Position numbers and translations under genes: made by a program. The notes under the pieces were generated by a model. It did no database searches, had not been told where the DNA came from, and saw only the letters and a program-made list of their open reading frames with translations. A DNA stretch of 56,045 nt, the filler included, from Catajapyx aquilonaris (lineage: Eukaryota): NCBI GenBank assembly GCA_000934665.2. It is 2 parts of 2 records of this genome, joined end to end, with 100 filler letters (N's around TTAATTAATTAA, not from the genome) between each part and the next. Parts side by side here need not be neighbours in the genome. Positions count along the whole stretch, not along the records: positions 28,055 to 56,045 come from JYFJ02005002.1; 1 more part is not named here. One strand, given 5' to 3'. Numbering within the stretch: position 1 is the stretch's first letter; each line of letters starts with the position of its first letter. Of this stretch, positions 39,372-46,150 are shown piece after piece.

Positions 39372-41409
39372 TTATGGATTCATACTCCTGTAAAACTCGA
39401 GAAGAATTTTCACAAGATCGTCTCTTCCGCTGATTCGAGCCACGTCAATCGGGGTGTGTCCGGATTCGTCCGTAACGTTGATATCTGCTCGTTTAGTTAT
39501 CAAATACACGGCAACAATCTGGTGAGCAAATGCGGCTGCAAAGTGCAATGGAGTCCACTGCCTGTAACCTTGGCAATGAATGTCTGCTCCTACACTTAGA
39601 AGATGTGTCACAACTTCAAAGTGACCACAGAGTGATGCGTAATGCAACGGGGTCAGTTGTTGGCCACTACAGAGGTTGATGTCCGCTCCTCTGTCCACAA
39701 GGAGCTGGACTGTTGTCAGATGACCTCCGATACAGGCTTCGTGAAGTGCGGTGTCCCCACTCTTCAGCTTGAAGTTCACTCCAACTCCTTTCTCCAGAAG
39801 GTCAGTTACCATGGAGGTGTCGCCATCACCTGAAGCCTTCAGCATGTCTGACCCCAACTGTGATAAGAAAACACATTGTTCCCGCGTCAGTACTGAAACT
39901 TTGTAAGAAATCTTTGTCTAAGAAGTGTGCAGTTCACTTACTTTGTTCAGGTGATCAATGCACTCAAGAACCTCTAGCCGAACCTGAGAAGCCTTGGGCC
40001 GATCCCCTGGAACTTTCGCCAACATCCACTTCAGGAGAGTAGCTTCCTTCTCATTTCTTCTCACAAAATCGGGGGGAAACTTGTGCCTTCTTATGTCCTT
40101 GTATAGGAGTGACAACTGTTTCTCGTTCTGCACATGTGGAGCTAATATTTGAAAGAAAGTTATCCCCATGGAATATATGTCACTTGCATAGGTGATGTTT
40201 TTGACATCTCCTGCCCACTGCTCAGGACTCCAATAAAATTCTGTGCCCAGAATATCAGATCGTGTAGGGTTATTCCGGTCAGTCAACGCATATGCTTCAT
40301 CAGAAGGAGCGAAATGCTTACTGAGGCCAAAATCCCCTATTTTAGCTGTATTACCATCGACAGAAAAAAAATATATTTTGCGGCTTCAAATCTCTGTGCA
40401 TTACTTTCTCGCTATGGATATACTCCACGCCGCACGCGATTTGCTCCATGATTAGCAATTTGTCCATCTTCACTCCGATTCGTCCCTCCTTTAAGATATC
40501 ACTCAAGGTGTCTTTATGGCACAAGGAAAGTTTAATGTAAAGTATGTGGATATTGTGGAAAGGGGTCTTATCATCCTGAGGACGTATCGTGTACCTTGTT
40601 GGGCTATCTTGGTATGTACCAGGCCATTCTTTGTATGATGTAGCCTCTTCCTTCCAAACATGATGGTACTGAATAATGTTAGGTTTGGGTTGTAGCCGCG
40701 CCAGGATTTTAACTTCGCGCAGTATCTGCTGATGCCTTTGCTCGTTTATGGGAAGAACAGTCCTCTTCACGGCATAGTACATGCCTGTCAGTTTCTCCTT
40801 TGCTTTGCACACCTCTCCGTAGGACCCTCTTCCGAGCAATTCTGTGAACTCGAAGTCTTTCTCAAATGTGGACTGTGGAGTTCTTTCTTCAGGCATGGGT
40901 ATGTCCATCCATCGTCTCAGATACTTCCAAACTTCAGTATGTCCAGCTTCGATAGCTAGATTTTCTGGGGTCCTCCCTTCCTTGTCTCTTAGCTGAATGT
41001 CACAACCCTTTGTTACCAGCATCTTTGTAACCGCCAGATGCCCTTTCCCTGCCGCCAAATGCAGCGGAGTCATACCATCATTGGTTACAATGTCGACCCG
41101 GGCCCTATTATCCAGTAGCAATTTGCATATAAATGCACTCCCTGAGTCTGCTGCTTCGTGCAGAGCACATCGACCAAACATGTCTCCAGCATCCACATTA
41201 CAAGCAGGTTGATTTAAAAGGATTTCAGCTGCTCCAATATACCCACTTCTACAAGCCAACATTAAAGGAGTCATGTCCAGAACGTCACTTCGGATATTCA
41301 CGTCTTCTCCTGCACGAAGTAACTTCTCAACTATCTCAAGGAGCCCTCTATCAGCTGCAATGTGCAGGTGACTCCATGTTTGTCTGTCCTTCTCTTGCTC
41401 AGACTCCAT
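39372..41409 (-). CDS. Ankyrin-eIF2alpha-type kinase-ankyrin protein, copy 1 (~650 aa if a +1 frameshift near 40364-40371 is corrected; possible pseudogene); exons 41409-39942, 39857-39372
   Basis: 4-5 N-terminal ankyrin repeats. Kinase FEKDF...LGRGSYGEV...YAVKR...IIQYHHVWKE...LYIKLSLC...HRDLKPQNIFF, then in the next frame KIGDFGLS...GTEFYWSPEQ...SDIYSMG. An 84-nt phase-0 intron leads to 4-5 more ankyrin repeats. Confidence 0.8.
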
Positions 41410-42289
41410 TGCTTGTGAGTGTTAAATGTCCACTGTTATAGTCCAGTAAGTATTTTCTGAAAATGTGCCAAGATGTCACACAACTTCGACAAAATTGTAC
41501 ATTGTGACAAGGTCAACAATTATTGCCAACAATATTATTGAGGGTGACGGGGAAAATCCACAAACAATAACGCTGTCAACACTTTCGCATCTCAATAACA
41601 TTAGACAACATCTGTTTTTCTGTGAACTATGCATTACAAGGACTATTCCTCTCCGTGGTAACAATCTTGGCAAGACAGATACCAATGATAATGAGCATTA
41701 GGAATTGGCCTTCATGCAACAGATGCTCAGTAAATGATTCTCATGCAGTACTGGTAAATATTCCCCACTGCATATTACAGAGTATATATTAGGACCCACT
41801 AAGATTCAGAGAATACATCAGTACCCTAATTTAACGCTGCTAATATACTGTATACGCAATGCTGTATATTCAAGCCTCATGTCGCTTTTCGTGCACAAGG
41901 GTAGGCTACATAATATTATTTACATAATGTATTGTGGCTATCAGAGTGACGTGAATTGCAAATAAGTCACAAATAAGCGTGTATATTAGGAGTAGTAAAG
42001 GTATGAATAGTTCGCTTACCTGTACTTTTTCTCACTAATAAAAGCGTGAAGAGTGTGCCAGCCTTCAGGTACACACACACCGTTCAACGATAAAATTTCT
42101 TAACAGTTTCTCGCACTCTACATGATATAGACTCTTATCAGTAGTACCGCTTACTCCGAGAGAGGCCCTTTAGTAGCCTAACTAAGTGGAGCGACCACTG
42201 ACCAGCCAGGTTGCAATATATGCCAGCGGTTGTATGAATATTAAGTGTGCTGGCAAGTTCTGTACCGGTATCACGGCTTTTGTCCATGG

Positions 42290-43370: not shown

Positions 43371-43453
43371 AAGCTTTATCAGTGACATCGTCGGGACATC
43401 AAGTGCGTAAATTGGTCCTTCGTTTTCATGTTGCTATATACTTCCTAACTGCG

Positions 43454-46150
43454 CTATTGTTTTGTCCATCGTTTCCTGCTCATGTCCAACTCTTGCAGAC
43501 CTATTGCAAAATCGTCTCTTCCGCTGATTCGAGCCAGATCCATCGGGGTGTGTTCGTATTTGTCCTTTAGGTTGCAATCTGCTCCTTCACTTATCAAGTA
43601 AGAGGCGACAAACTTGTGTGCAAATGCCGATGCAAAGTGCAAAGGAGTCCACTGCCTGTAACCCCTGCAGTGAAGGTCTGCTCCTACACTTAGAAGATGT
43701 GTCACAACTCCAAAGTGACCATAGAGTGATGCGTAATGCAATGGCGTCAGTTGATGGCCACCAGTGAGGTTGACGTCCACTCCTCTGTCCACAAGGAGCT
43801 GTACTGTTGTCAGATGACCTCCGAAACAGGCTTCGTGAAGTGCGGTGTCCCCACTCTTCCGCTTGAGGTTCACTCCAACTCCTTTCTCCAGGAGGTCGGT
43901 TACCATGGAGGTGTCGCCATCACCTGAAGCCTTCAGCATGTCTGACCCCAACTGTGATAAGAAACACATTGTTCCCGCGTCAGTACTGAAACTTTGTAAG
44001 AAATCTTTGTCTAAGAAGTGTGCAGTTCACTTACTTTGTTCAGGTGATCAATGCACTCAAGAACCTCTAGCCGAACCTGAGAAGCCTTGGGCCGATCCCC
44101 TGGAACTTTTGCCAACATCCACTTCAGGAGAGTAGCTTCCTTCTCATTTCTTCTCACAAAATCGGGTGGAAACTTGTGCCTTCTTATGTCCTTGTATAGG
44201 AGTGACAACAACTGTTTCTCCTCCTGCACATGTGGAGTTAACGTTTGAAAGAAAGTTATTCCCAAGGAGTAGATGTCACTTGGATAGCTGATGTTTTTGA
44301 AGTCTCCATTCTGCTGCTCAGGACTCCAATACAATTCCGTGCCCAGCTTACCAGATTGTGCAGGGTCAGTCTGGTCATTCGACACATGTGGTTCATCAGA
44401 AGGGTCGCAAACCTTACTGAGACCAAAGTCCCCTATTTTTGCTACGTTTTCATCTTCAGAAAAAAATATATTTTGTGGCTTCAAATCTCTGTGCATGATT
44501 TCCTGCTTATGGATGTATTCCACGCCGCACGAGATTTGTTCCATGATGAGCAACTTGTCAGTTTTCAGTCCAAGTCGTCCTGCCTTCAATCGATCACTCA
44601 AGGTGTCTTTATGGCAAAGCTCAAGAGTAATGTACAAATAGTCGAAAGTGGATGGAACGTTGAGAGACCGTAATGATGATTTAGTTGCTGTATACCAACG
44701 GCTTGTGCTGCTACCTTGGCCTGTACCAGGCCACTCTTGGTGCGATGAGACCTTCTCAGTCCAAGCATGATAGTATTGAATAATGTTACGCTGTTGTTTT
44801 GATAGACGCTCCAGGATTTTAATCTCACGAAATATTCGCGTCTGCATTTGCTCGTTGCTGGGAAGAACAATCCTCTTCACGGCAAAGCACGTGCCTGTCA
44901 TTCTCTTCTTGGCTTTGCACACCTCTCCGAAGGACCCTTTTCCGAGCAGAACTATGAACTGAAAGTCTTTCTCAAATATGGACTGCTGCAGTTCTTTCTT
45001 CGGGTAAGAAGGTGTCCCTCCTCCTTGTGGCCTTAGGAATAGTATATACATTGTATATTTAGTCACTTACGTGAAGGCTGGTGTTATATTACCTGGCAAT
45101 CATTATTCTGTGTGAAGATCTTGAAATTTCTAGTAATAACAATTTTCTGACAGTTTCCTCACTATTCGTAATGGCATATTGCAGAGGCGTCAGTCCTCTA
45201 TTGTCCTTAGCTTCGGGGTCTGCTCCATCTTCCAAGAGAAGCTTTACCACTTCTAATCTTCCCATTCCTGCGGCATAGTGGAGGGGTGTTATGCTGCCAT
45301 TTGTTCTTGCGCCTACATTGGCGTCTGAATACAGCAACAATTTGCAGATATCCGCTTGTCCGAGTAAGGCCGCTTCATGCAGAGCGGTCATTCCTCGATA
45401 GTCTGATGCAGATGGCTTGGCCCCATTTTCGATTAGTAAGTGGCAGACCATCACGGATCCTGCCTTTGCTGCCACTAACAACGGGGTGGCTCCCGATCTG
45501 TCTCTGGAATTCACGTCGTCACCCCTCCCAAGCAGAAGCAGAACAAGTGTTGTCGATCCGAAAGAGGCAGCGAGGTGTAGGTCCGGCGCTGATTTCAACA
45601 CCATCCATCCTTCCGTAACAACAGGGTATACCATCCCCTCTTGCAGATAACTCCAAACATCATAATGTCCAGATATATTAGCTAGGTATGCTGGGGTCCT
45701 CCCTTCCTTGTCTTTAAACTGAATGTCACAATGACCCATTGCTAGCAACAGCTGGGTTACCATCAGATGCCCTCTCTGTGCCGCCAAATGTAGCGGAGTG
45801 TTGCCATCATCGGTTACAATGTCGACCCGGGCCCTATTACCCAGTAGCAGTTTGCATAATAAAATGCTACCTTTGTTCACCGCTTCATGCAGAGCACATC
45901 GACCAGACACATTTTGAGCATTCACATCACAGCCAGGGTGACTTAGAAGAATTTCGGCCGTTGTAACACTCTCACTTCTACAAGCCACCATTAAAGGAGT
46001 CAGGTGAAGAATACCACTTCGGATGTTCACGTCTTCTCCTGCACGAAGTAAGTCCTTAACCATCTCATGATGACCTCTATCAGCGGCAACATGCAGGTCT
46101 GTCCATGTTCGCCTATCCCGCTCCTGATCAGATGCCATTGCCAAAGCCAT
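43454..46150 (-). CDS. Ankyrin-eIF2alpha-type kinase-ankyrin protein, copy 2, ~850 aa (exons 46150-45093, 45031-44035, 43951-43454)
   Basis: About 9-10 N-terminal ankyrin repeats in two blocks, then a 61-nt phase-2 intron. Intact kinase: LGKGSFGEV, FAVKR, REIK, IIQYYHAWTE, insert, YLYITLELC, HRDLKPQNIFF, KIGDFGLS, GTELYWSPEQ, SDIYSLG. An 83-nt phase-0 intron leads to 4-5 C-terminal ankyrin repeats. Confidence 0.85.

Follow-up and report, generated by a model that had tools for sequence, protein, structure and literature searches.

Two paralogous genes place a kinase between ankyrin arrays

Two paralogous genes, A (46150-43454) and B (41409-39372), lie in tandem on the minus strand of the window, by which we mean the whole 56,045-nt stretch of Catajapyx aquilonaris DNA that was analysed. 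Pfam matches placed ankyrin (ANK), kinase and ANK open reading frames (ORFs) in both, as a preliminary description of this DNA had proposed. Spliced in silico and translated, the three exons of gene A give an 850-aa protein without stops, in which ten ankyrin repeats are followed by the kinase and then by five more repeats (Pfam and translation). The features of gene A are as follows.

45093..46150, minus strand: exon 1, start codon ATG at 46150; codes for residues 1-352 (ten ankyrin repeats) and holds two bases of codon 353
45032..45092, minus strand: predicted intron 1, 61 nt, GT..AG, phase 2; GT donor at 45092
44035..45031, minus strand: exon 2; codes for a linker and the whole PEK-type kinase domain; residues 353-685
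43952..44034, minus strand: predicted intron 2, 83 nt, GT..AG, phase 0
43454..43951, minus strand: exon 3; five ankyrin repeats; residues 686-850; stop codon 43454-43456

Pfam matched the first ORF of gene A (45089-46162) to Ank_2 (2.7e-71) and Ank (1.2e-64), the second (44011-45066) to Pkinase (2.4e-45) and the third (43454-44026) to Ank (7.5e-26). The ten repeat cores of exon 1 were counted by eye on the translation, a regular expression having found 8 of the 10. Both junctions named earlier, 45093/45031 and 44035/43951, have the expected splice-site ends and keep the frame, and the gene B junction equivalent to the second is used in a spliced contig. The translated protein carries no CaaX motif at its C-terminus. 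Judged by its sequence, gene A is an intact gene.

Gene B, which Pfam on its ORFs resolves into five ankyrin repeats, the kinase and five further repeats, is laid out as follows.

40366..41409, minus strand: first reading frame, start codon ATG at 41409; five ankyrin repeats followed by the N-lobe and catalytic loop of the kinase
40364..40371, minus strand: T8 homopolymer with +1 frameshift (T7 in gene A)
39942..40363, minus strand: second frame; activation segment and C-lobe of the kinase
39858..39941, minus strand: intron, 84 nt, GT..AG
39372..39857, minus strand: last exon; five ankyrin repeats; stop codon 39372-39374

The first frame runs from the ankyrin array into the kinase N-lobe and on to ..HRDLKPQNIFF as a single ORF with no intron between. 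This ORF (40351-41421) matched Ank_2 (7.5e-34) and profile positions 2-131 of Pkinase (3.3e-26); it overlaps a second (39918-40385) that matched Pkinase positions 135-257 (4.6e-12), the two being one base apart in frame at the T8 run, and the last exon matched Ank (1.2e-30). The T8 run is present in a 2,246-nt contig (40087-42332, zero differences) in each of the DNA runs X1, X2 and X3, which represent one sample; run X5 has no coverage of it. We rejected an intron between the two kinase ORFs: the only frame-restoring GT..AG pairs span 25, 34 and 88 nt, and since all three would delete DFG, and the 88-nt pair the catalytic loop as well, none keeps the catalytic residues. Thus, of the two paralogous proteins that splicing had been expected to yield, that of gene A stands, whereas gene B as assembled encodes a 352-aa product of five repeats and half a kinase, terminated by the stop codon at 40351-40353.

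Gene B is nevertheless transcribed and spliced, as seen in one spliced contig of run X5 (record 26, 428 nt), which matches 40327-39942 with zero differences and passes from 39942 straight into the first 42 letters of the next exon, letters that are the same in gene A (43951-43910) and gene B (39857-39816). A second X5 contig, record 25, spans 39300-39799 and extends 1,065 nt past 39300. We read gene B as a copy that is still transcribed but has been inactivated by the insertion of one base, its product amounting at most to five repeats and half a kinase.

The claim that ankyrin repeats and kinase belong to one gene has as its rival that the arrangement is an artefact, of separate ankyrin and kinase genes that adjoin or of misassembly. 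Junction 45093/45031 lacks RNA support, X5 contigs covering none of the gene A-specific parts, and contigs collapse on the near-alike 3' parts of A and B. However, the array and N-lobe of gene B share one ORF, the spliced contig joins its kinase exon to the C-terminal ankyrin exon, the kinase exon of gene A lacks a separate start codon context, the frames and phases of all exons are compatible, and 40087-42332 and 44180-46300 are matched by long contigs of the three DNA runs with zero differences. We consider an artefact very improbable; the kinase is flanked by ankyrin arrays inside one gene.

The kinase is a member of the PEK family

The translations contain all of the motifs first listed for the kinase (F..DF, F/YAVKR, IIQYYH/IIQYHH.W.E, LYI.L.LC, HRDLKPQNIF, GT..YWSPEQ and DIYSL/MG), and its assignment to the eIF2-alpha type held up in sequence, fold and tree comparisons. 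In a phmmer search of the PDB the best matches were PERK (8.8e-46), GCN2 (4.4e-44), PKR (1.8e-32) and HRI (1.4e-30). The first 19 distinct sequences (E 8.8e-46 to 1.5e-28) include 18 named as one of these four and a single generically named one, 9bf3_A; the next match after this block is a CDPK at 1e-18. An AF2 model of the gene A kinase (pLDDT 85.4) returned only PERK at Foldseek ranks 1-11 (TM up to 0.88), then GCN2 and PKR, the first other kinase appearing at rank 42. The kinase therefore belongs with the eIF2-alpha kinases (PEK family), which shut protein synthesis down under stress.

Its position within that family varies by tree. Per-domain phmmer scores favour PERK-type sequences (160-178 bits, versus about 149 for GCN2 and 146 for PKR), and an outgroup-free tree places A and B in one group (SH-aLRT 83) with a Daphnia-specific set and 20 rows of metazoan PERK. 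When outgroups are added, the stem that carries A and B is long (0.81) and none of the four classes includes them; the branch joining the 62 references has support 94/93. Constraining A and B to PERK costs 4.0 lnL (p-AU 0.34); a GCN2 grouping (delta lnL 9.3, p-AU 0.30) is not rejected either. No database protein exceeds 44% identity. PERK is nearest; given the outgroup tree and the GCN2 result, descent from PERK is only the most likely reading.

Catalytic residues are kept but functional surfaces are changed

Aligned with 52 reference domains, A and B both carry the reference residue at 46 of the 64 conserved columns. Kept without exception are the glycines of the Gly loop, the VAIK Lys, the Glu of alphaC, HRDLKPxN, DFG, GT, PE, Asp252 and Arg313, and from these residues the kinase of gene A should be catalytically active. 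Also kept are the PEK hallmarks Y323, W327, the Cys of LYI..ELC, HRDLKPxNIF and SPEQ, as well as FPP.F after alphaG, the short alphaF-alphaG linker, the activation-loop Ser/Thr of the family and the seven-residue E480-T487 spacing.

Several other positions differ, as follows (PKR numbering).

R262: I in A, T in B; R in 88% of references
H317: Q in A, K in B; H in 100%
R322: Q in both; R in 98%
E480: Q in both; E in 100%
T487: Q in both; T in 94%
E490: K in both; E in 98%
Position after E490: Q in both; R in 92%

E480, T487 and E490 are all absent from only 2 of the 66 aligned rows, outgroups counted, namely A and B; among the references T487 varies in three PKR paralogues (S, P and N). Since the substitutions are the same in A and B, they presumably arose before the duplication and have been retained since.

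These changes bear on the earlier proposal that the two proteins form a new sensor class among genuine kinases of eIF2-alpha Ser51, with ankyrin arrays in place of the dsRBD, haem, luminal or HisRS-like sensors, and that the genes serve as a switch that shuts off translation in stress or in PKR-like immunity. The kinase is a catalytically complete PEK member that retains the linker, FPP.F and the activation-loop Ser/Thr, and each characterised member of the family is described as phosphorylating eIF2-alpha (PMC11305385); tandem duplication and fast divergence, moreover, resemble immune gene families. Against this, A and B alike have other residues at the docking face (E480, T487, E490) and at the Arg of the activation dimer (R262). 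This Arg, part of the dimer salt bridge, is called 'strictly conserved', with R262-D266 required (PMC6467004), and T487 in helix alphaG of PKR is given as one of few highly constrained sites, E480 being common to all four human eIF2-alpha kinases (PMC11556786). The neighbouring genes include no immune genes, and the immune or PKR-like role thus finds no support in its context. We regard this proposal, sensor class and switch together, as unlikely.

Because R262 and the three docking residues are replaced, Ser51 phosphorylation should not be assumed, and eIF2-alpha is, on these grounds, a doubtful substrate of the gene A kinase; the retained hallmarks and E480-T487 spacing mean that docking geometry may persist and that eIF2-alpha could still be a substrate. 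We give about even chances to some other substrate, appreciably lower ones to eIF2-alpha, and small ones to the absence of meaningful activity.

The architecture differs from those of known kinases

None of the 150 best representatives among database relatives combines ANK repeats with a PEK-type kinase; set against these relatives, the ANK-kinase-ANK layout is new. No dsRBD, RWD or HisRS-like domain was found by Pfam in the six ORFs. Nor was a signal peptide or transmembrane helix seen by Kyte-Doolittle hydropathy, the N-termini being hydrophilic and the top 19-residue mean (1.66) lying inside an ankyrin repeat. In these respects the preliminary description was accurate.

PERK (EIF2AK3), the ER-stress eIF2-alpha kinase, which gives the best sequence, PDB and fold matches and stands closest to A and B in the outgroup-free tree, shares with them a beta4-beta5 insert, LYI..ELC, HRDLKPxNIF, GT..Y.SPEQ and KFPP.F. 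Unlike PERK, A and B have a short insert, ANK arrays on both sides and no detected luminal PQQ-like domain, signal peptide or membrane segment; the salt-bridge Arg and the T..ER of alphaG are replaced, and identity is only about 31-43%. PKR/PKZ (EIF2AK2), the vertebrate nucleic-acid-sensing kinases, resemble A and B as cytosolic PEK kinases with a modular attachment, which in PKR/PKZ is the sensor, and as fast-evolving tandem paralogues. PKR-type proteins come first in an exhaustive whole-protein ranking, which is inflated by gene models carrying two kinase domains; yet PKR forms its own clade (100/96) without A and B, in which Pfam found no dsRBD or Z-alpha. The PKR group is reported to have arisen in jawed vertebrates (PMC11305385).

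RNase L (ANK-pseudokinase-KEN) is likewise a single cytosolic protein in which an ankyrin array precedes a kinase fold, and an ESM Atlas feature search returned it as an architectural look-alike (score 0.88), a lead only. Its kinase fold is a pseudokinase of a different family, whereas A and B have a PEK-type kinase with all catalytic residues and no KEN/RNase domain (Pfam). The parallel once drawn with RNase L weakened further, as the arrays resemble generic consensus ANK, and the 60 PDB matches listed for them do not include RNase L. ANK repeats also accompany protein kinases in ILK and plant ILK-like kinases, TNNI3K, RIPK4/ANKK1, DAPK1 and arthropod Shark, whose types are the nearest clusters in language-model feature space. 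These are TKL, CAMK or tyrosine kinases, no cluster is described as eIF2-alpha-type by name or Pfam label, and to our knowledge none has ANK on both sides of the kinase. The Daphnia-specific PEK-like proteins P0006, P0010 and P0014 (936-1148 aa, 'uncharacterized') are comparable as a long-branch, lineage-specific arthropod offshoot beside PERK with no recognised sensor domain (Pfam); unlike A and B, they lack ANK repeats and keep E480, T487, E490 and the next Arg.

The pair has diverged rapidly

Between genes A and B dN/dS is 0.55 overall, which bears out the rapid divergence suggested for the duplicates, and rises to 0.74 in segments while staying below 1 in every one. A value of 0.55 would also be expected from partial decay.

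Both genes might be functionless relics of a decaying lineage-specific family, gene A being open by chance. Gene B is frameshifted, family-conserved residues are lost, X5 contigs lack the gene A-specific parts, and the dN/dS values fit. Gene A, however, is open over 850 codons in three exons with intact splice sites, A and B keep every catalytic residue, each segment has dN/dS below 1, and the functional-surface substitutions common to both predate the duplication and were retained. We judge decay improbable.

The explanation that we favour, with somewhat better than even confidence in it as a whole, is that A and B are a tandem pair of lineage-specific, fast-evolving PEK members, most likely of PERK descent, in which a cytosolic kinase lies between ankyrin-repeat arrays and the luminal and membrane portion is missing. 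The arrays may be protein-binding modules that recruit or cluster the kinase, which could be switched on by activation-loop autophosphorylation at Ser579 and Thr584 of gene A (equivalent to PKR T446 and T451). With the salt-bridge Arg and the alphaG docking residues replaced in both copies, canonical back-to-back dimerisation and canonical eIF2-alpha docking would be impaired or absent, and a main substrate other than eIF2-alpha Ser51 is the likelier case.

Two further features concern the pair itself.

43826..44209 (gene A) and 39732-40116 (gene B), minus strand: near-identical tract; kinase end, intron and last-exon start
42296..43364, strand not assigned: spacer between the genes; inverted arms of a very high-copy repeat (42296-42350 with 43310-43364; 42393-42451 with 43219-43277)

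Over gene A codons 629-685 dS is 0.054, versus 0.27-0.58 in the remaining kinase segments, and a 384-nt contig of about double depth fits both tracts with 2 substitutions and 1 indel; gene conversion is the likely origin suggested by the sequence of the tract. Summed contig depth is hundreds to thousands over the spacer, compared with about 20-40 over the genes.

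A tandem pair of ankyrin-kinase-ankyrin genes

Within 39372-46150, on the minus strand, lie two paralogous genes, A and B, whose coding features are as follows.

Coding features of genes A and B
46150, minus strand: ATG start codon of gene A, with an in-frame stop codon just upstream
46150-45093, 45031-44035 and 43951-43454, minus strand: coding exons of gene A, in matching phases, specifying 850 aa with no internal stop
Between these exons, minus strand: gene A introns of 61 nt and 83 nt, with GT..AG ends
41409, minus strand: ATG start codon of gene B, in which 5 ankyrin (ANK) repeats are fused to the kinase without an intron, followed by an 84-nt intron (39941-39858) and then by 5 ANK repeats

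The preliminary description of this locus had proposed an ANK-kinase-ANK architecture with neither a signal peptide nor a transmembrane helix, and both proposals held. In particular, Pfam matched exon 1 of gene A to Ank_2 (2.7e-71), exon 2 to the protein kinase domain (2.4e-45) and exon 3 to Ank (7.5e-26), with exons 1 and 3 matching ankyrin families only. The kinase domain spans 295 residues, versus 255 positions in the Pfam profile, and the domain borders of gene A coincide with its exon borders. Read from the translation, gene A has 10 ANK cores, the kinase and 5 further ANK cores (a regular expression recovered 12 of the 15). There is no hydrophobic N-terminus and no transmembrane-like stretch outside the ANK helices, and the translated C-termini of both genes lack a CaaX end.

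The kinase belongs by sequence and fold to the eIF2α kinase family

To place the kinase, we compared it with known kinases by sequence and by fold. In a phmmer search of the PDB with the gene A kinase, the top 19 distinct sequences (E 8.8e-46 to 1.5e-28) comprised PERK (8.8e-46), GCN2 (4.4e-44), PKR (1.8e-32) and HRI (1.4e-30), with one of the 19 bearing a generic name only; the next kinase in order was a CDPK, at 1e-18. The exon-2 protein was modeled with AlphaFold2 from a 46-row alignment (pLDDT 85.4, pTM 0.84), and Foldseek matched this model to PERK kinase domains at ranks 1-11, with target-side TM values as high as 0.88, then to GCN2 and PKR; the first kinase outside the eIF2α kinase family (PEK) was TNIK, at rank 42. 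By both searches, then, the domain is closer to PEK than to other kinase families. The sequence also carries the β4-β5 insert, the Trp of 'aW.E', LYI..ELC, HRDLKPxNIF and GT..Y.SPEQ, features regarded as family hallmarks, and its W, C, HRDLKPxN, GT and PE columns equal the consensus of 52 reference PEK domains.

HMMER was also run exhaustively against 1.84 billion representatives (cut-off E <= 1e-30), giving 303 matches with a maximum identity of 44%. Fish and frog PKR/PKZ gene models headed the whole-protein ranking because their two kinase domains inflate the scores. Per-domain scores were 160-178 bits for PERK-type proteins versus ~149 for GCN2 and ~146 for PKR, and the nearest per-domain matches include insect and mite PERK-type proteins.

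For phylogenetic analysis, 66 kinase domains were aligned with L-INS-i (361 columns) and analyzed under LG+C20+F+G4; six rows (out_P0096, other_P0064, other_P0192a, other_P0221_k1, PERK_P0122_k2 and GCN2_P0018_k1) were left out of the final alignment because their branches were long or badly delimited. The tree recovered the reference classes (PKR at 100/96, and the starred GCN2 group) and joined the gene A and gene B kinases as a pair (100/100, stem 0.81). When two distant outgroup rows were included, the pair came to lie between those outgroups and the complete set of 62 references (94/93 and 94/74), a position that may reflect long-branch attraction. In the outgroup-free tree, the pair clustered at SH-aLRT 83 with the 20 PERK rows from metazoans and with a PEK-like group specific to Daphnia. 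AU tests, which have low power here, compared placement with PERK (ΔlnL 4.0, p 0.34) and with GCN2 (ΔlnL 9.3, p 0.30) and rejected neither. Descent from PERK is the best-supported candidate origin of the two kinases.

Direct orthology with PERK was considered and rejected: the luminal and membrane parts were not found, and the insert is short. PERK has a signal peptide, a luminal sensor and a transmembrane segment, whereas none was seen in any exon of gene A or B, and the long insert of its C-terminal kinase contrasts with the short one here.

Catalytic residues are retained and regulatory surfaces altered

Residues are given in PKR numbering. Across 64 columns conserved at >=85% among the 52 references, genes A and B each carry the consensus at the same 46. 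Both retain the Gly-loop glycines, the VAIK Lys, the αC Glu, HRDLKPxN and DFG, together with the activation-loop GT, PE, the αF Asp, the αH-I Arg and the family marks Y323, W327 and the Cys of LYI..ELC. Both also have a Ser at the T446 position and a Thr at the T451 position as phospho-acceptors, and thus both are predicted to combine intact catalytic machinery with an activation-loop acceptor. Because the catalytic set is retained, the kinase is very probably active.

Several of the replaced residues lie at positions to which roles have been assigned in the family. The R262-D266 salt bridge between N-lobes is called 'strictly conserved', and needed for dimerization and activation in PKR, GCN2 and PERK, in PMC6467004, which cites Dey 2005 and 2007, the latter on these three kinases. 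At R262 (Arg in 88% of references) gene A has Ile and gene B has Thr, with the partner D266 retained, so that the bridge is preserved in neither copy; in place of H317, gene A has Gln and gene B has Lys, and R322 is Gln in both. According to PMC11556786, E480, T487 and E490 have substrate-docking roles, and Thr487 is among the few highly constrained sites of PKR. In both A and B, E480 is replaced by Gln (100% conserved in the 52 references), T487 by Gln (94%) and E490 by Lys (98%), and the position after E490, Arg in 92% of references, is Gln. The E480-T487 spacing is unchanged. Of the 66 rows, outgroups counted, only those of gene A and gene B lack all three residues, and neither copy has the helix-αG docking residues of a Ser51 kinase. 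The surfaces used in the family for activation and for holding eIF2α are changed in both genes, and this change is older than the A/B duplication.

These findings bear on the proposal, made in the preliminary description, that the pair encodes eIF2α kinases constituting a new class of integrated stress response (ISR) sensor. Its ancestry component is upheld by sequence and fold, and its functional component is made doubtful by the replaced docking and salt-bridge residues: 'eIF2α kinase' is a label true of ancestry and not demonstrably of function. We regard the new-sensor reading as possible but rather unlikely. On the reading that we favor, this is a side branch of the PERK lineage that would be regulated through its ANK arrays and active in catalysis, and whose surfaces for activation and for substrate binding have been altered. 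Changes in the dimer and αG surfaces also allow for a different outcome, perhaps the more interesting of the two: a branch that has exchanged eIF2α for another substrate. We know of no case in which a branch of the family has done so.

The combination of ankyrin repeats with a PEK-type kinase

The preliminary description had cited RNase L as a known case of sensing by ankyrins plus a kinase fold; a specific link of the arrays to RNase L was not borne out by the searches. The N-terminal array looks like generic consensus ANK and matches ankyrin-1/2, NompC, DARPins and the ANK regions of latrotoxin best in the PDB; RNase L was not among the 60 matches listed, and Pfam did not match Ribonuc_2-5A. 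RNase L has a KEN nuclease, whereas neither gene A nor gene B has a Ribonuc_2-5A match.

Pfam found ANK in none of the 56 proteins examined from the best 150 representatives. A profile made locally from 956 ANK segments was run on all 295 proteins from the kinase searches and picked up nothing beyond P0064, the positive control, which comes from a metagenome and shares 26% identity with the query. Word-indexed searches gave nothing above 41% identity at longer lengths and nothing above 35% at near lengths. When the ANK repeats and N-lobe of gene B were searched against longer proteins, PF00069 occurred in none of the 120 listed, a list dominated by generic ankyrins that says nothing on ANK-kinase relatives. 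An ESM Atlas feature search, which covers clusters of at least 50 members and yields architecture look-alikes only, returned plant ILK-like proteins, RNase L, TNNI3K, DAPK1, ANKK1, RIPK4 and Shark, and no eIF2α-type kinase is named among these classes. We found no description of an ankyrin-bearing kinase of the eIF2α family in the literature searched, and the word 'ankyrin' does not occur in PMC5851622. The ANK-kinase-ANK architecture thus appears to be undescribed.

The eIF2α kinases share one common kinase domain and differ in their regulatory domains, these being dsRBD, haem-binding, luminal or HisRS-like, according to PMC11305385. An ANK-flanked member would give the family a new input module.

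Gene B is transcribed and disabled

The ORFs of gene B had been spliced into one protein in the preliminary description, and this could not be sustained: its kinase ORFs overlap, and a T8 run (40364-40371) puts them one base out of register. The run directly follows HRDLKPQNIFF, at the place where gene A has T7, and the upstream frame terminates at 40351-40353. An intron was tried as a rescue and rejected; the only nearby frame-restoring GT..AG pairs (25, 34 and 88 nt) all delete DFG, and the 88-nt pair would also delete the catalytic loop. An isolated assembly slip was likewise rejected, in that a 2,246-nt contig covering 40087-42332 occurs with zero differences in each of three DNA runs, all taken from a single sample, from which the assembly itself may derive. 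Transcriptional slippage and +1 ribosomal frameshifting on the U-run would be purely hypothetical means of rescue. Gene B is broken.

None of the runs recorded as RNA covers the region. Contigs matching gene B also occur in run X5, which comes from a different sample and study from the DNA runs and whose kind is not recorded. A 428-nt X5 contig matches gene B at 40327-39942 with zero differences and continues with 42 letters of the start of the next exon (identical in genes A and B), a spliced form with its donor exactly as predicted. Crossing the predicted donor into the next exon, this contig shows transcription of gene B and splicing at its final junction. Other X5 coverage lies at 39300-39799 (with 1,065 nt beyond) and at 41307-41542; the X5 contigs span neither the T-run nor the gene A-specific parts and are uninformative on both. 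If X5 is RNA, the gene B transcript would extend more than 1.1 kb past the stop codon (X5 record 25), as a long 3' UTR or as read-through into the next unit.

A bolder scenario would cast gene A and its relatives as a new ISR sensor class, cytosolic eIF2α kinases whose ANK arrays recognize a protein ligand, such as one derived from a pathogen or from stress, and trigger a shut-off of translation, making them an arthropod PKR analogue evolving by birth and death, with the gene B product (ANK plus N-lobe) as a possible decoy or dominant negative. We consider the scenario improbable.

Evolution of the gene pair

The two genes align in two blocks, separated in gene A by a segment of its own.

Duplicated and gene A-specific segments
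39348-40893 (gene B) and 43442-45004 (gene A), minus strand: duplication block 1, 84% identity
40897-41412 (gene B) and 45624-46141 (gene A), minus strand: duplication block 2, 78% identity
45005-45623 (gene A), minus strand: 619 nt absent from gene B, holding ANK repeats 6-10 and the only ANK-kinase intron

Between A and B, dN/dS is 0.55 for the whole pair and ranges from 0.41 to 0.74 across segments, which indicates relaxed or diversifying evolution but stays below 1. The copies are almost the same from 39732 to 40116 in gene B and 43826 to 44209 in gene A: over 384 nt that take in the intron, they are set apart by 2 substitutions and 1 indel. This tract runs from the end of the kinase through the intron into the beginning of the last exon; elsewhere the genes differ by 16-22%, and a near-identical tract amid such divergence indicates recent gene conversion.

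The spacer at 42108-43511 contains inverted copies of a repeat whose copy number in the DNA runs is very high, with a summed contig depth of hundreds to thousands versus ~20-40 on the genes. The repeat is probably a transposable element, and it may have mediated or followed the gene duplication.

Neighboring sequences

Other features of the window
28003-29499, minus strand: long single ORF, its end running into an N gap
29879-31966, plus strand: long single ORF
34905-36632, minus strand: long single ORF
53663-55540, minus strand: long single ORF
33698-34849, plus strand: DUF229 gene (E 5.7e-85)
20280-20876, minus strand: IFT20-matching exon (E 4.3e-29)
16456-17802, minus strand: 448-aa ORF with many tandem His-rich units (HHAEGLPKGVT-like)
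52907-53596, minus strand: simple-repeat ORF (SYLTSPYLTS-like)
50274-51007, minus strand: simple-repeat ORF (YFDISI-like)

The four long single ORFs (498-695 aa) are paralogues, two of which have weak, sub-threshold matches to Lig_chan (E 4.5e-4 and 6e-5); the cluster looks like a set of very divergent ionotropic-receptor-like genes. The DUF229 and IFT20 neighbors are ordinary and provide no stress or immune context. At the His-rich ORF, the local GC content is 0.51 versus ~0.40 around it, and no significant Pfam match was found. The two simple-repeat ORFs probably represent satellite or low-complexity DNA and not genes.
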